From Rhizaria sp. SCN 62-66 (taxonomy: Eukaryota), in assembly GCA_001724265.1 (NCBI GenBank), contig MEDY01000147.1, forward strand, positions 46,378 to 66,377: a stretch of 20,000 bases of DNA, read 5' to 3'. Shown here one piece after another: positions 2,841-20,000 of the stretch; within the stretch, counting starts at the first letter, position 1, and each line of letters opens with the position of its first letter. The position numbers and the translations under genes were made by a program. A model generated the notes under the pieces. The model did no database searches, had not been told where the DNA came from, and saw only the letters and a list, made by a program, of their open reading frames with translations.

Positions 2841-4001
2841 GTAGTCGGCGGCGCCGCCGCTCTGGTGCACTGCGGGGGCCCCGGGCGCGGGCGCGCCGGC
2901 CGCCGCGGCCGCCGCGGGGACGTTGCCGCCGGCCTGCTGTTGCTGCTGCTGCTGGGCCGCGGTGGAGGCGCGGCGCGGGCGGCGCTTGAGGTCGGCGAAG
3001 AAGGGGTGAGAGAGCGCGGCCTCGGCCGTGATGCGCTTCGAGGGGTCCATGTGGAGCAGCGCAGCGAGCAGGTGCAGTCCGTCGGCGTCGCCCTCGAGGC
3101 GCGGCACCAGCACGTGCAGCGGCGTCGGCTTGACCGAGGCCGAGCCGGGCGGGAACGAGGCCGCGTAGAGGGGCAGGTTGACGGCGTTAGGCCAGTCGTG
3201 GTGGTCCGGGGTGCCCATGAGCTCGGTGATGCACTCGAGCTGCTTCGCGTCCGTAGCGCCTATGATGGGGAAAAATGAGAGAGAACGAGGGACAGGAAGA
3301 AGAGACTCAGTGAGAGACATGTTCATAAAGCAATACGTCACTAGTGCAAGAATACATGAGGATCTTGCGTGCGATGTTTAGCAGAGGAACGTACCGGGGA
3401 AGAGCGGCGAGCCGTTGACCATCTCGGCGAAGATGCATCCGACGGACCAGAGGTCGACCTCGGTGGAGTAGTCGACCTCGCCCAGCAGCAGCTCGGGGCC
3501 GCGATACCACACCGTGATGATCTCGTGCTTGAGCGCGCTAACGTCCATGGCGAAGGAGCGCGCGAGCCCGAAGTCGGCGAGCTTGAGGATGCCCGAGCGG
3601 TTCAGCAGCAGGTTCGCGGGCTTGAGGTCGCGGTGCAGCACCTTCTGCTTGTGGCAGAAGGCGAGGCCCTGGAGCAGCTGGTAGAGCAGGGACTTGACTG
3701 TGATGATGTCGAGGCCGGCATTGCAGGCGTCGAGGTACTTCTTGAGGTCGAACTCAAGGTACTCGAAGACCATGGTGAGCTTGTCCATCATGTGAATCAC
3801 GTCGTGCATCACCACAATGTTCTGGTGCTTAAGGAACTTGAGCAGGGCGATCTCACGAATCGCCGTGGAGGGGATGCCTTCCTCTTCGATGAGGCTGATC
3901 GTCTTGAGGGCGACAGACTCGGATGTCTTTTTGTCCTTGGCCTTGTAGACGACGCCGTAGGTGCCCTTGCCGACACGGTCGAGAACTTGGTAGCGGTCCA
4001 T
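2763..4001 (-). CDS. PSTAIRE cyclin-dependent kinase (CDK1/2/5, Pho85/Crp-like), ~367 aa; exons 4001-3395 and 3259-2763
   Basis: Motifs [35 protein letters not shown] and [12 protein letters not shown]. The intron 3394-3260 (GTACGT...CATAG) joins LFPG to ATDAKQL in frame; then [16 protein letters not shown], a poly-Q tail and a TAA stop. Confidence 0.95.
2801..2953 (-). repeat. Coding (CAG)n tracts giving poly-Gln in the CDK C-terminal tail
   Basis: (CTG)n runs on the plus strand at ~2805-2837 and ~2934-2953 translate to poly-Q on the minus strand. Confidence 0.85.
3260..3394 (-). other. Spliceosomal intron, 135 bp, phase 1 (CDK)
   Basis: Donor GTACGT, pyrimidine tract and TAG acceptor; removal restores the kinase C-lobe reading frame. 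Confidence 0.92.
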
Positions 4002-4580
4002 ACTGACTTTCCAAGAACAATAGATAAGATAGATAGATTAGATGTACTGCGGCGGTCAACGAGGCAACGGATGAGCGAGCGCACGGAGGACTATGCTGTG
4101 CAGTGCTGTGCTAAGCTGTGAGTGTGTGTGGTGTGTGCGCGGGAGCGGGTGTGCGGCGCGCAGGAGACTAGAGAAAGGCAAAACGCGCGGTGAGGTGCGA
4201 GGGCGAGCAAGGCCGACAGCTGGCTGCTCGGCGGCGGCGGTTGTGGAAATAGTTTGGGAAACGGGTGAGTGTGTTGGTGCTCACTAAGAGTGGGCGGCGC
4301 GAGGTCAAAAGAAGCGACTACGACTCAGCGGAGGAAGTGGGCGCACGCAAAAGAGATGGGAAAACGCTGGGTAGGCAAAAAGACGACGGGCGGGGTTAGG
4401 CGCGCACGCGAGAGAGAGAGGGAGTGAAGGCTGTTTGGAATGAAAAAAGAGGACAGGAGGGGGCGGATGGGTATGAGAAAAGCGTGCTAGGGAGGCGATA
4501 GTATTTTGTTTTGCCAATGTAACACAATAAACAAAAACCTCAACTCGGGGAGTATCTAATAATACGGCTGCTGCATTGCT

Positions 4581-5244: not shown

Positions 5245-6224
5245 ATGGTACGTACAATCGCCCACTTCGACTAGCCCGCATTTCCGCCTTGCGCACCGCC
5301 CTCTATTTTTATTTCTCATTAAAACCTCAACAACCCGTAGCTTATTTTTAATATCTCACCGGATCATCTTGTTTCTGTTTCTCACGCTGCTCTTCTTGGC
5401 CTCGAACTCGATATGCATCAACACAGGGTATCACCAAGCGCAACCGCCCCATGCCGCAGGAGTCGAAGCGCGTGCGCATCCTGACGCGCGTCACCGAGGA
5501 GTACAACGCCGCCGAGGCCGCGGCCAACCCCCGCGTTGGCTTTACCGCCGAGGACGCTCCCACCGAGACCACCGCGCTCGTCTCCCTCTCCAAGCCTGTC
5601 GTACGTCACCGTTTCACCTCTCCTCATGGCACTTTCTCTATTCGTCGTCATCTTTCTCTCGAAGCCGATCATTATTCTTCATGAAGTTGCACATGTGTTT
5701 TAATTATGTCGTGATGTACTGTAGAACTGTGAAATTATCCCGTCAAGCCATATTATTTCCATCTATATCACTCTTTGTATTTCCGTCACGTTCCTTTGAC
5801 ATGACATCACTCGGTCGGACTCACTCTTGCTCTTATCCGTTTCTGCTCATTTGCATTTACTCCACAGAGCACGCTGGACATCAACTCCACGGGCTCGGTC
5901 CGCGGCGTTCGCGTTTCTGGTAACACCTCCAAGCGCCTCCGCAAGCGCTTCAGCTCGCTCGTGGTCAAGAACAAGCTCATGACGTCGTCCTACGCCAAGC
6001 GCGTGGCCGAGCGCGAGGCGCGCGACCGCATCAAGGTCGAGCAGGCGAAGCTCAACGAGATGTCGGAGGCCATCAAGGATGCGGAGCGCCGTCGCCACAA
6101 GCAGAAGGAGGAGGCGCGCGCCGAGCGCATCAAGGCCCAGAACGCCGCCACGGGCCAGAAGCTCTCGCTTAAGACCCTCAAGAAGCTGACGCCCAAGCAG
6201 CTCAAGAAGCTCCACCGCATGTAA
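5245..6224 (+). CDS. CGR1: Cgr1/CCDC86-family basic coiled-coil nucleolar rRNA-processing protein, ~177 aa; exons 5245-5247, 5427-5600, 5868-6224
   Basis: The spliced product reads MGITKRNRPMPQESKRVR...GVRVSGNTSKRLRKRFSSLVVKNKLMTSSYAKRVAEREARDRIKVEQAKL...LKKLTPKQLKKLHRM. This fits the recalled Cgr1/CCDC86 pattern (SG..K...RFS, then a charged coil, then KxxKKQ). Both introns are GTACGT...CAG and phase 0. Confidence 0.72.
5248..5426 (+). other. Intron directly after the start codon, 179 bp
   Basis: CACC-ATG|GTACGT...ACACAG|GGT ATC ACC AAG; the downstream exon is in frame with ATG 5451. Confidence 0.75.
5601..5867 (+). other. Intron, 267 bp, phase 0 (Cgr1-like gene)
   Basis: GTC|GTACGT...TCCACAG|AGC; AT-rich; joins two GC3-rich frames. 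Confidence 0.88.
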
Positions 6225-6325: not shown

Positions 6326-7006
6326 TGATCGATCGATAAAGGCGACGTATCGAGCTGGGGCCAGCCGCAGGTGCTGTGACAAACGCACTGAGGTTTCAGT
6401 GAAGGTTTGATTTTACACATCAGAAACATGGACACACAATATGACGTCTGATAGCACACTGTACACGTTCAAGCACACGAGCAGAGCTCTGGCTCACTGC
6501 ACATGCAGTAGCGCTTGTATTGCTTGTTGTGAGACAACTCCAATTCATGTTTCTGAGGTTATAGTTACTCTAGTTTTCTTCTTTTAGCGAATAAATTTCA
6601 CGCTGTTGTTACATTCACACCATGTGTATCGCATTTCACGAAGAGTCTAAATCCCTTTACTCGGCAGGACAACGAAATGACTATAGGCAGGATCGTTTCA
6701 AAGCACAAAAAGATTTAAAGATGTTAAAGATGTCGCATTAGCCATTGTATTTAATGTAGCTGTATTGTAAGTAGTAGTATAGTACTGGCTGTACCGCGAG
6801 GACACGAGCAGAAACGGTAACATTGCTGTTGTAATTTCGATGCCACGTCTTTTGCACGTACACAGACACAAGACACACTGCAAGCAAGGTAGGTGAGATA
6901 TACCCCCCAATTAGTTCAAAATCCTCACCATCGACAGACCTCAACACAAAACCAACCTAAGCTTTCGCTTTCGCCGTCTAGAGTTTCAAGCTTTTTGATT
7001 TAGAAC

Positions 7007-9107
7007 TTAGAACTTGGCGGCAGCAGCAGCAGCGGGCTTGGCGGCCTCGCCGGAGAGCTTGCTGATCCAGTCGTCGGTCTGCTTGAGCACGTCGGTAGCC
7101 TTGCCGAGGGTGGCCTTGACGTCGGCCTCGGACTCGAACTTGACACCCGCAGTCTTAGCAACATCGGCCATGGACTTGGCCTTGGGCTTCTTGCCACCCT
7201 TCTTGGCGCCGGCCTTCTTGGGCTCCTTGATCGCGACAGTCTTGGAGTCGGGGGACGCGGCGGCGGCGACGAGGTTACCGGAGAGCTCAGCGGTGAGCTT
7301 GGCCTCCTCCTTGCGCTGCTTGGCGATCTCGGCCGCCTCGGCGTCGTCGCGGTCGTGCATCTTGTCCTCGGCCGCGCGCGCGTTGCGCTTGGCGAGCTTG
7401 GCGCGGAACTTCTTGTTGTCGCCGAACTTGGACATGATGTTCAGGGCGGTCTTCTCGACGGTACTGCCCTTGGGGTTGAAGAACTGCTTGCCGTGCTTCT
7501 TGGCGTTGCGCTTGCGGAAGCGGCGGGCGGCCTGCTTGGCGTTGCGGGCGCGCTTGTTGGCACCGGACTTCTGCTCCTGGGCCTTGGCCGCGCTGGCAGC
7601 AAGGTTCTGCTGCTTCTTGGCGGCAGCGGCAGCGAGGTCGAAGTACTTCTTGGCCTTGGCGGCGTCCGAGTTCTGGTACTTAACGGCGAGGCGCTGGTAC
7701 TCAGCAGCCTTGTCGTTGGCCTCAGTGGCCTGCAGCTGAAGCTTCTTCTGGTTGGCAGCAAACTCCTCAGCCTTCTTCTTCTCGGCAATCATCTTAGCGG
7801 CCTCGAGCTTCACAGCATCCGTCGACGCAGTGCCGGACGCCTTGGCGGCGGCGGCGCGGCGCGCGGCGGCGAGCTTAGCGCGCAGCTGGGCGATCTTAGC
7901 GGTCTGGTCGGCGCTGCCCGTGGAGGCGCGGCGACCCTTACGGCCATTGCGGCGGCGGTTGCGGCGGGCGGCGCGGCGGGCCTTGCGGGCAGCGCGGCAA
8001 GCCTTGCCGGCGACGCCCTTGGCACACTTGGGGCCACGGCGACCCTTACGGCCCTTGCCACCACGGCGACCCTTACGGCCCTTGCCACCACGGCGGGCGC
8101 GACGAGCCTTACGAGCAGCGCGGCAAGCCTTGCCGGCGACGCCCTTGGCGCAGCGACGACGGAGCTTGCGGCCCTTGCCACCACGGCGGGCGCGACGAGC
8201 CTTGCGGGCAGCGCGGCAAGCCTTGCCGGCGACGCCCTTGGCACACTTGGGGCCACGGCGACCCTTACGGCCCTTGCCACCACGGCGAGCGCGGCGGGCG
8301 GCACGGCGAGCCTTGCGGGCAGCACGGCAGGCGTTGCCGGCAGCACCCTTGGCGCACTTGGGGCCCTTGCGGCCACGGCGAGCCTTGCGTCCCTTGCGGC
8401 CACGGCGAGGACCCTTGCGACCCTTACGACCCTTAAGACCCTTGCGACCCTTGCGCCCGCGACGAGCGCGGCGGATGCCACGGCGTCCACGACGGTGACG
8501 ACGGTGGCGGCGACGGCGGTCCATGCTCACGCTGGCGCGAACCATGGGAACCTCCATCACAGCAGTGGAGTCAACCTCGGCAGAGAGCTCGAGGAGAGCA
8601 GTCTCGCCCTTGAGGGCGACGGAGTTGTCGAACTGAGCAAGCTCGTACGACGCATCGCTGCTAGCAGTGCTCCCGACTAAACAAGGAGAGGACAGAAAAA
8701 GAGGCACAATACAAAAGAAAATCGAAGAAAGACACGTGTGAGGCAAAGTGCACCGAGAATGTGACGTCGAACAAAGGAGCAAGAGGGGACAGGCCTGGGC
8801 AGGGCTGTAGGGGCAAAAGGAGAACATCTCACAGCTCCTGTCTGGCACGCAAGCGCGTTGAACAAGACTGCCAGAGAGCATGGCGGTAGGTCTAGATAGG
8901 ACACACTGACTCTGCGTAGTGATGTGCGTTCACAAGGCCGCTGTAGCGTGCACAAAGGGCTGCAGGATGGGGTCAATCGAGAGTGGGTTCGATTGGTCGG
9001 GTTGGCAGATTAAAAAGTGGTTCATTGGGAAGGAAAAGGTCGGAGGACGTACCAGAGAACAAGGCCAGCAGAGCGACCAACACACCGATAAACCAAAAAT
9101 GCTTCAT
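7007..9107 (-). CDS. Uncharacterised predicted secreted, highly basic repeat protein, ~574 aa; exons 9107-9053 and 8676-7007
   Basis: Exon 1 is MKHFWFIGVLVALLALFS (signal-peptide-like) followed by a GTACGT donor at 9052. The acceptor TTTAG at 8677 is phase-compatible (G|TC = Val). Exon 2 is open for 1670 nt, has strongly biased codons (AAG, CGC/CGT, GCC/GCT, GGT) and ends in TAA. Confidence 0.85.
7928..8518 (-). repeat. Coding tandem repeats: four CAKG(V/A)AG(K/N)ACRAARKARR modules separated by (G/R)KGRKGRR linkers
   Basis: Modules start at 8356, 8245, 8152 and 8026 (spacings 111, 93 and 126 nt) and are near-identical at the DNA level. Confidence 0.92.
8677..9052 (-). other. Intron, 376 bp, phase 1, separating the signal-peptide exon
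   Basis: GTACGT donor; long pyrimidine tract before TAG. Confidence 0.8.
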
Positions 9108-10055: not shown

Positions 10056-13000
10056 ATGATGCAGTTCCGCCACACAAAGACCATCACGTCACCGACACGC
10101 TTCGACGCGGCGGGCCACTACGAGAAGCGCGTGCTGGCCATGGCGTGGGCGCCCAACTCATACCGTCTTGCCGTCGCGCTCGCGGACAACTGGATCTACC
10201 TGTTCGACGAGAATCTGGAGCTCATGGACCGCTTCCCCACGAAGCCCGCCAACAAGCCCGCCGACGGGAGCCCTGCGGCGCCGTACTCCGTCCGCGGCCT
10301 CGCCTTTTCGCCCGACTCGGAGCGGCTGGCGATCGCACAGTCGGACGATATCGTATTCGTGTACCGCCTGGGCGCGACGTGGGAGGACAAAAAGGCCATC
10401 GTCAACAAGTTCTACCTCCAGACGGGCGGCGCACACATCCCGGATCAGAGCATCACCTCGGTCTGCTGGCCCTCAAAGCGCCCCAACGAGATCGTTTTCG
10501 GGCTCGCCAACGGCTCCGTCAAGGTCGGCGTCTCCAAGGTCAACCGGGTGATCACTCTCTACGACACGACGTCCTTCGTCCTGGGCCTGGCCCCGTGCAC
10601 CGACGGCAACTCGTTCGTGTCCGCGCACGCCGACGGCACGATCCGCAAGTACTCGTTCCCGAACGGGCCCGACGTGCCGGCGTCGAGCATGGTGCTGGTG
10701 AAGCTCGACTTCATCCCCTACCACATCGCCGTCGGCGAGCATGTGCTCGTGGCGGGCACCGTGACAGACACGCAGCCGCACAAGAAGCTCGTGTCCGGAG
10801 ACAACATTGTGCAGGCCATCGACCTCTTTGGACAGACCATCCAGCAGCTCAGCTACAACAGCAACAACCCCGAGGGCGCGGTCGACCTCGCCTCCGCGCC
10901 CTCGACGGCCGCGGGCGGCAAGGCGCTGACGAACCGCTTCCCGCCGTCGCGCGAATTCTCCTCCTGCGCCATGGCGCCCTCCGGCCAGCTGATGATCCTC
11001 GGCATGTTCGACCGCTTTGAGGCCTTCTCCTTCAACGCCACGCGCAAGCGCTGGGAGTTCGTCAAGAACATCCCTTCGGTCGAACAGCTGCTGTCGATCA
11101 ACGCCGTCGCCTGGAAGCCAGACGGCTCCAAGCTCACCGTCGGCTCCGTCTCGGGCGCCTTGGACGCGTTCGACGTCTGCCTCAAGCGCGCGCTGTACCG
11201 CGGCCAGTACGAGTTCCTGTACACGTCGTTGTCGTCGGTAATCATCAAGCGGCTGGCGACGGGCGCCAAAGTGGCCGTGCAGTCGCGCTTCGGCTGCGAG
11301 ATCCAGAAGCTCAACGTCTACCACGACCGCTACGTCGTTGCTAACACACCCGAGACGCTGCTGCTCGCGGACCTGGACGCCGGGCTCATCTCCGAGGTGC
11401 GCATGGTGCTCGACTACAACGCGACCAGCAACGACAGCAACGGCGGGCTGCTTCCGGCCCGCAATGGCGCTGGCGCCGCTGGCGCTGCCGTCAGCGGCGC
11501 GCACCGCGGGCCGCGGTACCTATTCGAGGCCGAGGGCGCGTGTGTGGTGCACAACAGCGGTGAGCTGAGCGTGATCGAGTATGGCCACAGCGCGCCCACA
11601 GGCTCGGTCCGCACCGAGCACTTCTCGCCCTACCTGCTCTCGCTCGTCATCCAGAAGGACGGGGCCAACAGCGCCGGCGGCGGCGTCGTGCCCGCGGGCG
11701 CTGGCGTGGGCGCCGCCGGCGCGGGCGGCGTGAAGCGGCTGGCGTACCTGCTCGACTCGCAGGCCGTGCGCGTGGTGGACCTGGTGTCGCAAACGGCGCT
11801 GGCGTCGGCCACGCACGACGCGACCGTCGACTGGCTGGAGCTGAACCAGACGGGCACCAAGCTGCTCTTCCGCGACAAGCGCCGCACGCTCGTGCTGCTC
11901 GACATCCTGACGCAGACGCGCACGACGCTGCTCAACTACTGCGCCTACGTGCAGTGGGTGCCCGGCGCGGACGTGATCGTGGCGCAGGGCCGCGGCGCGC
12001 TGCACGTGTGGTACGACCCCGACCAGCCGACGGACGTGACGGTGATCCCGGTGCAAGGCGACGCGACCGAGATCGAGCGTGTGCAGCACTCGGCCTCGGG
12101 CGCGGGGCAGACCTGGGTCACCGTCGACCAGGGCATCGACACGGTCCGCATTTCTCTCAACGACGCGCTCATCAACTTCGGCACCGCGGTTCGCGCGGGC
12201 GACCTGCACTCGGCCGCAGCGACGCTCGAGACGCTGGCCGCCGAGGCCGCCGAGACGCGCCGCCACGCGGCCGCGGCGGCCAGTCTGCTGGCCAGCAACG
12301 GCGGTGCGGGCGCGGGCGGCGACCCGCTGCTGCTGCCCGACGCCGCCACGGGCCAGGCCAGCGCCACGTCGGCGGCCGCGGCGACCGACACGATGTGGGT
12401 CACTCTGGCGCGCTTGGCGCTGGGCAAGGGCGACTTCGTGGTCGCACAGCGGTGCTACGCGGCGCTGCAAGACGTCGCCAAGTCGGCCTACCTCGACAAG
12501 GTGGTGCGCCAGGTCGCCGCTGAGAAGGCAGGCGGGCATTTCAGCGGCGTGCAGTCGCCGCAGGTCCGCGCGCTGCTGCTGGCGCTGGGCAAGCAGCCCA
12601 AGGCGGCCCAGGGCGCTTTGCTCGAGGCGGGCATGGTCGAGGAGGCTGTGGCTCTGTGCCGCCGCCTGCACAAGTGGGAGGAGGCGCTCCAGATCGCGGC
12701 TGCGCGCAACCTGCCCTCGCTGCCGCAGCTGCAGCACGACTACCTGGCCTACCTCGTCGCCACCAAGCAGGAGGAGCGCGCCGGCGAGCTCAAGGAGAAG
12801 GCCGGCGACCTGGCCGCGGCGCTGCAACTCTACCTGCGCGGCGGCTTCCCCGCCCGCGCCGCGCAGCTCATCCTTAAGGCGAACCTGCTGCATGACACGG
12901 CGCTGTGCGAGGAGGTCCACCAGTCGCTGCTGCGCGGCCGCTGCTTCGAGAAGGCCGGCGAGCTGCTGGCCGCGCGCCGCGAACCCCAGCGCGCGCTCGA

Positions 13001-16000
13001 CGCCTACCGCCAGGGCCGCTGCTACAACAAGGCGCTGGAGCTGTGCCGCGCTGCGTTCCCGGCCAAGCTGGTCGCGCTCGAGGAGGAGTGGGGCGACTAC
13101 CTCGTCACCCAACGCCAGTACGTCGATCGTCACTTAAGCAGACAAAATCTTCATATGAGCTCATTGATATTTACATTTTCATTCTATAATTACCAAGATG
13201 ATGTATTCTTATGATAGTATTCTTCTGATATATTTGTAAACTCTAACATTCTCTTCATCCGTATTTGCTCTTTCGCAACTCTCCTCACCTTAGGTACGAC
13301 GCTGCTTGCGCGCACTTCATGGAGGCGCATCACTACCTCAAGGCGGTGCAGGCCGCGATTGGCGCCGAGCAGTGGGCGCGCGCCGTGAGCATCGCGGCCA
13401 CGATTGACCCCGCCGATGCGGCGCCATACCTGCGCAAGGTCGGCCAGCACTACGCCTCGGCGCGGCGCTGGCCCGAAGCTGAGAAGGCCTTCGTCGACGG
13501 CGGCGCCCCGCAGGAGGCGGTGGCGATGTACGGCAAGGCAGGCGAGTGGGACAAGGCGTACCGCATTGCCAAGACGTTTATGCGCCCGCACGAGCTGATG
13601 CACATGTTCGTGTCGCAGGCGCAGAAGGCCGAGGCCGATGCTGTGACCGAGGGCGCCGCCACGGGCCGCGGCGCGGGCTCGGTTAACGTGAGCAAGCTGC
13701 AGGAGGCGGAGCGGCTGCTGGTGACCGTGGGCGAGGTCGACCGCGCGATCGCGATGTACAAGAAGCACTACCTGTTTGAGGACATGTTGCGGCTGGTGCG
13801 TGAGCACCGGTCCGAGCTCGAGGTCGAGACGCACCTGCATCTGGCGCGCAAGCTGGAGAAGGAGGGCAACCTGGCGCAGGCTGAGGAGTACTTCCTGCGC
13901 GCCAAGGAGTGGAAGCCATGCGTGGCGATGTACCGCGAGCACAACCGCTGGCAGGACTGCCTGCGCGTCGCCAAGGAGCACGGCGGGCCCGCGGCCTTCA
14001 AGCAGGTCGCCTACGCCTATGCCACCTCGGTTGGCGACGACGCGGGCGTCAAGTTCCTCGCCGAGCACAACCTGGCGGAGCAGGCCGTAGCCTTTGCGAT
14101 CGAGCGCGGCGAGTGGGACTCGGCCTTCATGCTGGCCGAGAAGTCGTGCCGCCACAAGCTGCCTGAGGTGCACCTGCAGCGCGCGATGGCATACGAGGAC
14201 GAGGGCCGCTTCGCCGACGCCGAGCGGGGCTTCCTGCTTGCCAACAAGCCACGCGAGGCGATCGAGATGCACATCCACCAGAAGGACTGGACGGCGGCGA
14301 CGCGCATCGCGACGCAGGCGGACCCGTCGATGCTGCCCGACATCGCCGTCGCGCAGGGCCGCGCGGCCGCTGAGGCGGGGGCGTGGGCGCAGGCTGAGGC
14401 CTACTACCTGCAGGCGCAGCAACCGCAGCACGCACTGACGATGTACCGCGAGCAGGGCCGCTGGGACGACGCCATCCGCCTCGCGCGCCAGTACTCGCAG
14501 AAGGACGTCGCCTCACTCGAGACGGAGAAGCTGCGCGGGACCGCGGCGGCCGCGACACCCGACTCGGGCGACTACCTGCTCTCGCAGGCGCGCGTGGCCG
14601 AGTCGCAACGGCAAATCCCGGCCGCGGTGGACCAGTACCTGCTGCTGGCGCCGGGCCACGTCGCTGCGGGCACGCAATTGCCCTCGCTGGCCGCGCTGGC
14701 CGATGTGCTGGCGCACGCCACGCGCCTCGCCACGCAGCACCTCCCGCGCCAGCAGGCGCAGGTCGCTGTGCGCGCGGCCGCGCCCAAGCTCGTCGCCGCG
14801 GGCGCCGCCGACCGCGCCGGGCGCGCGCTCGCCGAGGTGGGGCTCGTCGAGGAGGCGCTGCAGCTGCTTGTGCGTGAGGACAAGGGCGACGTTGCCACAG
14901 AGCTCGCGCGCACCTACGGCGGCTACGAGATGGTCCGCACCGTCGAGGCCATGCGCCAGGTACGCACATTTCTTTTTCTTATTTTGGAAATATCTCGACA
15001 CATATTTGTTTTTTATTCGTATGTCTGTTGCTTTTATGTTTGTACGCGCCTATATCACAAATCTATCTTTCATTTAATGCCCTTTCTCACCCCTGATCAT
15101 AGGACCACCTGCGGCAGAACAACCGCATCGAGGAGCTGGCCCCGCGCAACGCGGGCATGGCGGTGGACGTGTACGCACAGGCGGGTCAGTGGGACAAGGT
15201 GCTGGAGCTGGCGCGCCAGCAGGGCCCCGCGGCGGTGCACCTGTACGCGGCCAACCACGCCGCCAAGCTCGTCTCCGAAGGCCGCTTCAAGGCCGCCGTG
15301 TCGATCCTCGCGCAGCACGGCTGCGAGGCGGCGCCCAGCGTGTTCCCGCTGCTGCGCCGCGTGTCGCAGGAGGTGCTGGCGATGAGTGAGGAGAAGCTCG
15401 GCGACGACGCCGGCGCCGCCTCGGCCACCGGCGGCTATCAGCTCACGGGCCCCGCGGGCGCCGACGGACTCCCGTTTGTCTCGCTGCCGGCCGCAATGGA
15501 CGCGCTCAAGCGCGTGCTGCTGGCTGTGCTCGCGGGCGTCACGGCCAACAACAGCGCGGCCATCACGACGGCCGAGCACGCCGCCGCGGTAACGGAGCTG
15601 CGCCGCTTCGCGTCTGTGGCGCACCTCTTTGCGACGCGCGAGAAGGCCAAGGCCTCGGGCGCGCTGCCGATCGCGGCCAAGCTGTCGATGGCGCTGCTGC
15701 GCGCCTCGAACCTGCTGCCCGTGGACCGTGCGTTCCTGGAGGCCGGCAACGCGTGCCGCGCGCTGAGCGACAAGGCGCCCGCGTGGCACTCGAACGCGCT
15801 CGTCTTTTACAACCGCTTCATCGACCTACACGACGCTATCTCAGACCCCGAGATGGGGAACATCACCAACAAGGACTTCGAGGGCACCGACATCCCCAGC
15901 CCGTACGACATGCCGCTGCCGTCGCGCCACTGCGTGCCCTCGGCGCTGGCCGAGGAGGTCCGCGACTGGGTCCTGGAGAAGATCGCCGACGGCGAGCAGA

Positions 16001-16239
16001 GGCTCGCGCAGCGCCGGTGCGAGAACTGCAACAAGGACACGTACGCGGCGAACTTGGCGTGCTTCACGTGCCGCGCCAAGCACGACGAGTGCGTCGTGAC
16101 GGGCTGGCCCGTGCTTAAGGCCACCGCCGTGCAGTGCGGCGGCTGCGGCAAGAAGGCCAACCGGCTCGACTGGAACGAGTGGGTCGACGCCAAGAAGGCC
16201 TGTCCTTGGTGCGACGCCGCGCAGAAGCCGCAGTATTAA
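10056..16239 (+). CDS. IFT172: Intraflagellar transport protein 172 (IFT-B), ~1954 aa; exons 10056-13117, 13294-14959, 15103-16239
   Basis: N-terminus MQFRH...AMAWAPN...DRFPTKPA...YSVRGLAFSPDSERLAIAQSDDIVFVYRLGATWEDKKAIVNKF; also VDWLELN..GTKLLFRDKR, LEEEWGDYL, EDEGRF..AE..FL.ANKPREAI.M and DFEGTDIP. Architecture is WD40 propellers, a TPR-like solenoid and a Cys-rich C-terminus. Two GT-AG introns join three ORFs in frame. Confidence 0.97.
13118..13293 (+). other. Intron, 176 bp, phase 2 (IFT172)
   Basis: CA|GTACGT...CTTAG|G TAC GAC; AT-rich; contains a CTAAC candidate branch point. Confidence 0.92.
14960..15102 (+). other. Intron, 143 bp, phase 0 (IFT172)
   Basis: CAG|GTACGC...CATAG|GAC CAC CTG; AT-rich; moves the reading frame into that of ORF 15157-16239. 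Confidence 0.92.
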
Positions 16240-16704: not shown

Positions 16705-18696
16705 ATGGTTCGCCTCGCGCTCGGCGTAATTCACTCCTCCCTCTGCTTCTAATCCAGTCGCTCCAACTTCACAGTCGATGCAGTTCAAAACAATCTTACA
16801 AAGAAAGTAAAAAGATTGGTTGTTTTAATTGTTTGTGCCACTTTCAGTGAATAACATCGTTGATGCTCCTGCCTTTGATCCCTGAATGCACTTTTCGTGA
16901 CGCCATCTCACGGTAACTCCCATCGTCCCCGCTCTGTTTCGCTCTGTCTAGCCCCCGTTCCTGTCCATGGAGCTCAACGTCCCCGACGCCGTGCAGCAGA
17001 TCCCTGGCGACTTTTCCCCGGGCATTACGCTCGCGCGCTTTACGCGCACGACCGCGGAGGAGGCCGCGCCCGCGCACTCGTGGGAATCGCTTGACACGAG
17101 CATCTACTCGGTCCGCGCCACCCCCGACCTCGAGAACTACACAGCCCCCGCGGCGCCTGCGCTGTTCGAGACCTTTGCCGTTGACTTTGTGCACTCGGAT
17201 CTTAAGGTGACGTCGGTGGCGCGCCGCATCACGCTCAACAACGAGCTCAAGGCCGACGGCAAGATGGTTGGCGGGATTCCCCGCGTCTTCATCATGAACT
17301 GGGTGCTGCCGCGCTACGACCCGCCGAACCCGCTCTGGGGCGCAGACCAGACTAACGGCGAGGGGTACAACATTATCATCTACGCCAAGCTTGCCGCCAA
17401 CATCCAGCAGGCCATCGGTACGTCAAGTCACCAACAAGAGCAACTTTTAACAAACCAATGCAGGTCGTGTTTGTGTTGTTAGCAACAGGTTTACCTCCAC
17501 AAATTCGTGGTGTGTCACAATTTCCGGCTGCATTCTTATAGATAACATGCAAATAACTTTAGTTCTTCTTCATATTTAAAATTTTTTTCTTTCTGTCGTG
17601 TCATTGCGCCTGTCGCAGAGAAAGCCCTGGCCGACGGGTGGGACATGTCCTTCTGGGCCGCGACGCTGGGCCTGGACGACGCCGCCCTGCTCGCTGCCGC
17701 AACGGCCGAGGCGGCGCTGATGTTCCCGCCGCTGCGCGAGCCGGCGAACCCGGACGCGCAGTCGCTGATCGGATCGCTCTTCTCCTGGGGCGGCGGCGCC
17801 GCAGCGGCCGACGACGAGGCGACCGTGGCGGCCCGCAAGCGGTACGAGCAGTGGAAGGACCTCTCGGCCAAGCGCGAGGCGCGGCGCGTGGAGTACATCA
17901 CGGCCTTTACGGCCAAGGCGCGGCTCCCGGTCCCCGCGGGGCTGCCTAACGCGCTCGCGCTCATCCACCGCATTGTCAACGGGCGGCGCAGCGCGTACAA
18001 CATGCGCAACCGCGCCGTGAACCTACTACAGCCAACGCTGCCGGTGCCGCTGGTGACCGCAGCGGGCGTCGAGGCCATCTACCACGGCGATGACGGCGAC
18101 GACGAGATGATGGACGCGGCTGAGGCGCTGCAGGCCGAGCGCGAGGACGCAGAGGACAAGGCTAACCTCAACTGGGCCATGGCGCGGATGCGCATTGTGA
18201 CACGCATCTGCAACCTCGATGCCTGCCAGTTCAACGCCGTGGTCAAGCCGCTCGCGGAGAAGTACAACGGCTGCCCGTACGTTTCCCGACGCGATTGTGT
18301 CCTCTTGCCGTATCATTTTTATTGAGTGTGTTCATTGATATCATGTCTCACTGCCTTTTTCAATCCTCTTGCGGTCTCTTTGCTTTTACTCCCCACAGCT
18401 ACTTTGTTGCCGACTGCCAACGGCTGGAGACCACGGGCCCGGTTTTTGAGGCCAGCATCGACGTGCACCAGTTCTCCTACCTCTCCAAGCTCGGGCTTGC
18501 CGCCTGCCGCGACATCCTGACCGTGCTCATCTTCGACGTGCTGCTCGTGGCGCAGGGTTCCCTCGCTGCGGAGCTGCCCGAGGTGCCCACGCTCGGCGTT
18601 CGCATTAACCAGATGCGCCTCGAGGGCGCGCCCAACATTACCTCGGAGCGCGACAGGGAGCTCAGCGCCATGATGAGCCCCAAGAGCCCCGAGTAA
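16705..18696 (+). CDS. EDR2 C-terminal (DUF1336)-like domain protein, ~470 aa; exons 16705-16707 (tentative), 16952-17417, 17619-18276, 18399-18696; alternative start at ATG 16967
   Basis: Motifs W...YSVR...ALFETFAVDF, IPRVFIMNWVLPRY...GEGYNIIIYAKL, RMRIV.RI.N...KYNGCP, FEASIDVHQFSYLSKLGL and QG..AAELPE..LG.RI match the recalled plant/protist DUF1336 pattern. Introns 17418-17618 and 18277-18398 are GTACGT...CAG and phase-compatible. Confidence 0.8.
17418..17618 (+). other. Intron, 201 bp, phase 1
   Basis: ATC G|GTACGT...CGCAG|AG AAA GCC. Confidence 0.87.
18277..18398 (+). other. Intron, 122 bp, phase 2
   Basis: TGC CC|GTACGT...CACAG|C TAC TTT. Confidence 0.87.
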
Positions 18697-19145: not shown

Positions 19146-19235
<90 letters not shown>

Positions 19236-19252
19236 GTTGTTGCTGTTGTTGT
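19146..19252. repeat. (TTG)n/(CAA)n microsatellite
   Basis: About 29 perfect TTG units at 19146-19232, then a short degenerate tail. Confidence 0.97.
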
Positions 19253-20000
19253 ATGTTTAACACAAACTTGTCAAATTATCATATTTTCTTTTTTCTCATG
19301 AAGTCGTTTCGTCATAAGGTTATCACATTTTCTGTTGCCAACAGGTTGCAGGACTCTGGCATATAGCAATTACAACAGCAAGCTTGAGCGTGTTTTGATG
19401 CTGTTCCTTCGTTGTTTTACTGCTTGTTTTGGTCATTTGCGATGTGGTCGCACTCTGACGCTTCCAACGTCTGTCCTATATTTGCAATATTCGCTTCACC
19501 TCAGTTCGTTATCTTCGTGTTGTGGAAGTCCGCCGAACGTCTGTTGTCATCGTTGACTTCGTCGACTAAGTCAAACCAAAACAATATCAACTGTAAAGAA
19601 CTTAACAATTTTACACGTTTATATATAACAGCCCGTTTCAGTTTGCTTACCAACCAAATATTACTAGTCATACAAAGCTCTCTTGCTTGTGATTTCCCAA
19701 TGGGTAGCTTGGGTAAGGGTGAAGCTCTCGATGTTGCGCACACAAGAAGTAATGGTGTGCGTCAAGGGCATTGTTATAAAATCAATAGATTCGAACTGGA
19801 AAACAACGAAAAAATCGTCGATTTTATGAACCTACATTTGACTGGGAACTCGATATTGGGCTGCGGAGCGACAAAGTGTAGGTTGTACAAGATGAGTTTA
19901 TTGAATAACCCCTATGTAGCGTCAACTAAAAAACGCGATTTCGCGCTTTTTTTGCGACTTTGGCGCACTTTCGTAGAAGTTATCAAACTACGTGGTTTAT

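Follow-up and report, generated by a model that had tools for sequence, protein, structure and literature searches.

A predicted secretory precursor with a 203-residue polycation, and further genes of like layout, in a probable cercozoan of activated sludge

The window analyzed in this work, a stretch of 20,000 nucleotides of contig MEDY01000147.1 from the assembly of Rhizaria sp. SCN 62-66 (GCA_001724265.1), carries on its minus strand a gene for a predicted secretory precursor. A signal peptide and a mildly acidic pro-piece precede 203 residues without a single Asp or Glu, followed by a long helical region (Table 1). At least six further genes of the same genome are built in a similar way. 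The layout is a known one; the sequences, two recurrent signatures, and the gene set itself had no match in the searches made. We give an even chance to the explanation that the protein is a highly expressed secretory cargo, the matrix or adhesive of a granule or extrusome, which is condensed with polyanionic partners.

Table 1. Features of the window. Positions are those of the 20,000-nucleotide stretch; residues are those of the spliced protein.
Feature	Position	Strand	Remarks
CDC45-like start (presumed)	2-1408	minus	
Cyclin-dependent kinase	3381-4037	minus	
Cgr1-like protein	5805-6224	plus	match below cut-off
C-terminal tail	7010-7039	minus	Lys-Pro, Ala run, Lys-Phe; end common to other signal-peptide proteins
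Ala/Lys-rich helical region	7040-7909	minus	residues 275-564; net basic, no Cys; no homologue or fold match
Polycation	7910-8518	minus	residues 72-274; 203 aa without Asp/Glu, 101 Lys/Arg
Four C-x8-C units, with an Ala/Arg helix after each	7997-8356	minus	inside the run above; putative disulfide loops
Pro-piece, mildly acidic	8519-8662	minus	residues about 24-71, net -7; putatively cleaved off
Shared pro-piece motif ALLELSAEVD	8570-8599	minus	residues 45-54; motif type recurs in other secretory proteins of the genome
Exon 2, through the TAA stop	8676-7007	minus	under RNA contigs of runs X1, X3, and X4
Phase-1 intron	9052-8677	minus	376 nt; GTACGT donor, pyrimidine tract ending in TAG (GT-AG)
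Exon 1	9107-9053	minus	55 nt; includes the start codon and encodes most of the predicted signal peptide; assigned from sequence
IFT172	10056-16239	plus	head-to-head with the gene, about 950 bp apart
EDR2_C-domain protein	16952-17482	plus	
ORF without Pfam match	17546-18325	plus	
(TTG)n microsatellite	19146-19257		about 37 copies

The original prediction placed the N-terminus of the protein on a separate exon. The gene model confirms it: exon 1 encodes the expected hydrophobic stretch, and splicing leaves an open frame of 574 aa on the minus strand (pI 11.8, net charge +130). To check the model against RNA and DNA, we placed contigs from four public runs (X1, X3, X4, and X10) on the gene. In the polyA run X3, one contig joins position 8674 to position 9055 with 4 letters between them, a net skip of 376 nt that stays in frame. 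This contig has a depth of 3, carries 40 nt of exon 1 on its short side, and shows 10 differences in 101 nt (about 10%), which indicates that it comes from a related strain; of the two differences listed for the pro-piece, one is silent and the other replaces Val with Leu. Run X1 covers positions 6897-8677 and has nothing inside the intron, run X10 covers the intron in a DNA-like manner, and run X3 also contains an unspliced intron piece. The junction between 9053 and 8676, which the original prediction proposed to confirm with RNA, is supported by this one related-strain contig and by consistent coverage. The GTACGT hexamer of the donor site recurs after the signal-peptide exons of sister genes (see below). 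The codon bias of the gene is as strong as that of HSP90 and far above that of IFT172 (GCG/Ala of 0.09, versus 0.24 and 0.47, respectively), which suggests high expression. Two length differences were seen in the coding sequence. A 27-nt insertion in run X3, at position 7016 within the C-terminal tail, keeps the frame, and so does a 126-nt skip in run X4 inside the repeats (7988-8115, with 35 ambiguous letters); the latter is either repeat-number variation or assembly collapse.

Residues 1-23 are predicted to be a signal peptide, given their hydropathy and the similar N-termini of the sister genes. The best 12-residue hydropathy mean is 3.07, at residue 6, and no later segment exceeds 0.93. 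The acidic segment of about 50 aa that had been described next is present, but it is mild. The abrupt switch to a stretch lacking Asp and Glu also stands, with a corrected length: the acid-free run has 203 aa, and the 197 residues given originally mark the point where its Lys/Arg content ends. This run starts with a series of Arg and seven Gly-X-Y triplets, and is composed of 70 Arg, 31 Lys, 40 Gly, 36 Ala, and 8 Cys, with 2 Ser, 1 Thr, no Tyr, and 6 large hydrophobic residues in all. In 10,000 shuffles of the protein, no acid-free run reached 203 aa, the maximum being 140. The remaining ~300 residues have a net charge of +35. They had been described as a helical coiled-coil region, of which the long helices are indeed predicted in a single-sequence structure model (pLDDT 78-93 at exon-2 residues 291-390, but pTM only 0.28), while a coiled coil is plausible, with a modest heptad enrichment.

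The claim that this is a secreted precursor without known relatives was supported in the collections searched. The ESM Atlas gave no match to the window protein nor to its sister encoded on contig C102, phmmer found no homologue among 1.84 billion representative proteins, and a search of 5.8 billion proteins with the C-terminal region, restricted to lengths of 305-972, found none either. A PDB sequence search with the window protein gave no match, and Foldseek with the low-confidence model returned generic helical hairpins, none of them significant (best E 0.9). In Pfam, there is a marginal match to Collagen (27.9 bits for a cut-off of 27.2), explained by the seven Gly-X-Y triplets of the run, a sub-threshold one to EGF_TEN, and nothing else. 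The only NCBIfam matches are to bacterial collagen-like adhesins, and they are weak and far below cut-off. The JGI metagenomes contain one identical partial copy and nothing else. Finally, we found no publication on such proteins in Rhizaria in a literature search made mostly outside subscription journals and without supplements.

Within the genome, protein searches show the C-terminal half and the pro-piece to be single-copy. Hence, the genes described here share a design and motifs, not alignable domains, and the proposed search for paralogues of the C-terminus gave none by protein alignment, while at least six further genes with a like layout exist. The DNA pattern of the basic repeat led to a second gene, on C102, and a search with the C102 protein led to a third, on C467. 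The products of these two align (E 1.6e-13), the sole alignable pair among the seven genes, and the alignment is probably driven by composition. The polycation precursors found are on contigs C147 (the window), C102, C467, C40, C12, C47, and C189, and this census of seven is a lower bound. All seven have a hydrophobic N-terminus, an acidic piece whose net charge ranges from -7 to -28, and then a sudden switch to Arg; in four, the window gene included, the hydrophobic N-terminus lies on its own short exon. The residue before the switch is D, E, A, or G, and the boundary is thus not exactly conserved. Acid-free runs of 188-209 aa with 40-50% Lys/Arg occur in five of the seven, with repeats that differ between genes, which suggests that length and charge are kept rather than sequence. 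The exceptions are C40, with a run of 80 aa and a second acidic spacer, and C189, with 50 aa. Tyr is absent from the acid-free run of the window protein and occurs at most once in those of the other six, where uninterrupted Gly-X-Y triplets number at most five. Amphipathic cationic segments are found in sister proteins; the one in C12 has 8 hydrophobic residues out of 18 and a moment of 1.01. The window gene thus belongs to a wider gene set with a shared layout, that of a signal peptide, an acidic pro-piece, and an Arg-led polycation.

Other searches did not extend this set. Among Arg-run DNA patterns over the genome, Ala/Asp repeats dominate and controls outnumber matches, and the RRRGG pattern recovered three known members, with 17 matches versus 9 in controls. 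No new polycation was found at 26 more motif loci (20 hand-picked from 155 matches and 6 returned loci). Co-regulation with the head-to-head IFT172 was considered and dropped, since the sister genes adjoin unrelated housekeeping genes.

The first of the two signatures lies in the pro-piece. The window gene, C102, and C467 have a motif of the form [SA][LFM][LVIM]E-x-[DES][AS]E, with Ala at the first Glu in C102. The pattern derived from these three seed genes has 13 matches in the genome, for none in controls: the 3 seeds, 7 in-frame occurrences in acidic segments (6 of them with a visible signal peptide), and 3 chance matches. A shorter pattern gave 28 matches, again for none in controls. We examined 22 of these, the other 6 being within genes already found, and assigned 16 to the motif class (a signal peptide is visible in 10 of these, and the N-terminus was not seen in the other 6) and 6 to chance. 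Three pro-cathepsins supported by Pfam carry the motif: it lies between the I29 inhibitor and the catalytic domain of two of them, and follows I29 in the third. The region between these domains is removed from pro-cathepsins. The motif is also found in PLA2G12 (a phospholipase A2), a weak LCAT-like protein, a frame with a thioredoxin domain, and the very long acidic pro-region of a transglutaminase-like protein with a signal peptide (L099, contig C153, 3946-7047, minus strand). Many Asp/Glu/Ala-rich polyanionic secretory proteins carry it as well, and the eleven acidic frames measured have net charges of -38 to -110. Similar acidic motifs occur in secreted proteins of other SAR protists, and the motif may be widespread.

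The second signature is at the C-terminus. The pattern A[AK]KF-stop has 8 matches in the genome and none in controls, all of them ending Lys/Ala-rich frames. A signal peptide is present in 6 of the 6 proteins whose N-terminus is on the contig, which corresponds to an independent count of 4 out of 4, as the window gene and C38 shaped the pattern, and two matches are at contig edges. Further Lys/Ala-rich helical proteins end in Lys-Phe or in Phe runs (L282, L283, L284, L285, L287, L288, L289, L178, and L179), with signal peptides in those that have a visible N-terminus. Such an end may be a luminal sorting signal. Two of these secretory genes, L179 (C110) and L285 (C96), have frame changes inside their repetitive coding sequence, which are either assembly errors or unrecognised short introns.

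The host, a long-branch SAR flagellate of activated sludge, is probably a cercozoan. The runs holding the window sequence are labelled as wastewater, activated sludge, and biofilm. The IFT172 protein is at most 44% identical to any relative among the matches listed. We built trees from its first 800 residues, using FastTree with 93 of the 120 listed matches and IQ-TREE with 42 of them. IFT172 is placed in a clade of unnamed sequences (support of 1.0 in FastTree and SH-aLRT of 100 in IQ-TREE), which is sister to alveolates (0.89 and 89.5, respectively). The two trees differ on the grouping with stramenopiles, which has a support of 0.98 in one and of only 9.1 in the other, and the heterolobosean Pharyngomonas is found elsewhere. 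By its position, this clade would be rhizarian. The sole SSU rDNA in the genome (L003, contig C706, 2959-10403) is AT-rich, contains four group I introns, and has an additional hairpin next to helix 17; about 500 additional bases in the first of these introns may code for a homing endonuclease. We take these features to look heterolobosean, in conflict with the IFT172 tree, and contig C706 is therefore probably misbinned. Ubiquitin is encoded by separate monomer genes, several of them in tandem (L004, L005, and L011; contigs C3 and C651), and no polyubiquitin monomer junction was seen among those examined. They are unusually divergent, start with M-S-M-Q, and extend three residues beyond the di-glycine. 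The M-S-M-Q start recalls, by analogy, the one-residue insertion in rhizarian polyubiquitin described in the accessible part of an earlier work (PMC6133090). Cercozoans, including the long-branch sainouroids, are prominent in treatment plants, according to the available portion of another (PMC8827150).

If the protein is the matrix or adhesive of a granule or extrusome, the following steps can be envisaged. Splicing, as in the related-strain contig, would give a protein with a signal peptide which, judging from its hydropathy, would enter the ER. Cleavage ahead of the Arg run, probably by a cathepsin-type protease, would remove the motif-bearing pro-piece. The 200-residue polycation would stay whole and attached to the helical scaffold, and this is probable because we detected no kexin or dibasic convertase: the kexin/furin P-domain (PF01483) has no match in the genome, whose assembly is incomplete, and the five S8 peptidases, typed by eye, are KP-43-like (three), site-1 protease-like (one), and tripeptidyl-peptidase II-like (one). 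The original prediction had the charge partly masked by the pro-piece during trafficking. This is not supported, as a net charge of -7 faces one of +101 in the polycation, and the counter-charge must come from elsewhere. Neutralisation would instead occur in trans, by polyanionic secretory proteins or other polyanions, and the cargo would condense; at the gene level, the genome encodes both polycationic and polyanionic secreted proteins. After release, the material would bind to negatively charged surfaces and, more speculatively, might be cross-linked by the secreted transglutaminase. It could serve in prey capture, in attachment, or in a coat or cyst wall.

Such a matrix would work like the granules of the sandcastle worm, by analogy and without relatedness. 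The cement of this animal forms by condensation of polyanions and polycations in granules, as described in the accessible part of PMC4275877, and the separate polycationic and polyanionic secreted proteins encoded here could likewise condense in a granule. However, the window polycation has no Tyr for DOPA, which excludes DOPA curing, the acidity comes from Asp/Glu repeats, and the host is single-celled. The same part of that source reports that the transglutaminase model of barnacle cement was refuted, and cross-linking in our system is thus speculation. The granule cargo of ciliates is acidic, not basic, in the portions available of two sources (PMC4978903, PMC12811490), and the granule lattice and trichocyst matrix proteins are acidic calcium binders in the former. 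These are also multigene sets of secretory pro-proteins, thought to be processed en route, with cathepsins implicated. In contrast, window-type proteins are strongly basic, as shown by the pI and net charge given above, and no sequence, Pfam, or PDB link was found between the window protein and the ciliate granule or trichocyst proteins.

The strongest counterpoint to the matrix reading is the presence of the pro-piece motif on digestive hydrolases (the cathepsins, PLA2G12, and the weak LCAT-like protein), which suits a food-vacuole destination equally well, together with the amphipathic cationic helices of some sister proteins such as C12. The protein may then be a bactericidal or prey-clumping cargo, sent with cathepsins and phospholipase to food vacuoles or prey, where the polycation would bind to bacterial envelopes and permeabilise them. 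We regard this as possible, if rather unlikely. Protamine and other long Arg/Lys polymers are bactericidal. Defensins, cathelicidins, and the eosinophil pro-major basic protein also combine a signal peptide, an acidic pro-piece, and a cationic mature part. In cationic antimicrobial precursors, the pro-piece roughly balances the mature charge, there is an amphipathic hydrophobic segment, and a dibasic convertase is used. However, the window pro-piece offsets 7 of 101 charges (about 7%), and the cationic part is 200 aa long, with large hydrophobic residues at only 6 of its 203 positions (they are locally abundant in the amphipathic segment of C12). It remains attached to 300 further helical residues, no kexin P-domain was found in the genome to free peptides, and the Pfam search gave no antimicrobial family. 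The suggestion of a polyprotein cut into microbicidal peptides is weakened by the same failure to find a P-domain and by the scarcity of large hydrophobic residues.

It is quite improbable that we are dealing with a silaffin-like protein forming the matrix of silica scales or of a silicified cyst. Some cercozoans make silica scales, and acidic partners exist in this genome, as silacidins do in diatoms. The accessible part of PMC4557024 gives Sil1p a signal peptide, an acidic domain, and basic repeats, and the gross layout of the window protein is the same. The likeness to silaffins noted in the original prediction holds for this layout and fails beyond it. The window protein lacks the Ser-rich units and the RXL at repeat ends (2 Ser and a single internal RXL in 203 aa, no RXL in the pro-piece); it is instead Arg/Gly/Ala-rich, with Cys loops and a helical C-terminal half of 300 aa, and has no sequence similarity to Sil1p. 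No silicon transporter was found in the assembly, which may be incomplete (PF03842, no match at E<=1). We think it very improbable that the protein is a trimeric collagen-like polyanion binder that combines a short stretch of Gly-X-Y with a helical region for oligomerisation. The Collagen match just above cut-off and the weak adhesin matches in NCBIfam point that way, but a long Gly-X-Y run is missing: the seven uninterrupted triplets are nearly all charged, and the other members have even fewer. Lastly, a protamine- or H1-like nuclear protein, started from a Met just before the Arg run (codons at residues 59, 63, and 70) and preceded by an accidental signal exon, is hardly credible despite its Arg/Lys/Gly/Ala composition and a junction known from a single low-depth contig, since this contig has exon 1 in frame, the spliced protein has a signal peptide and a secretory-type pro-piece, and the polycation genes, the window gene included, share the hydrophobic N-terminus (seven of seven) and in part its own short exon (four of seven).

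To our knowledge, little is known of the proteins that cercozoans use as materials for extrusomes, adhesion, coats, and cyst walls. The seven genes provide a concrete set of candidates, with two putative sorting or processing signatures and candidate enzymes for processing and cross-linking. That five different repeats converge on acid-free runs of about 200 residues suggests a physical design rule. A bolder view, which we consider unlikely, is that they belong to an undescribed system of regulated secretion in this rhizarian lineage, marked by the acidic pro-motif and often by the Lys-Phe end, and delivering a polycation-polyanion coacervate glue that is set by transglutaminase. If true, this would be a single-celled counterpart of the underwater cements of animals, and would provide activated sludge with a natural cationic flocculant. 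A role as glue or flocculant would matter for the part that protists play in shaping sludge flocs, and for wet adhesives inspired by biology.
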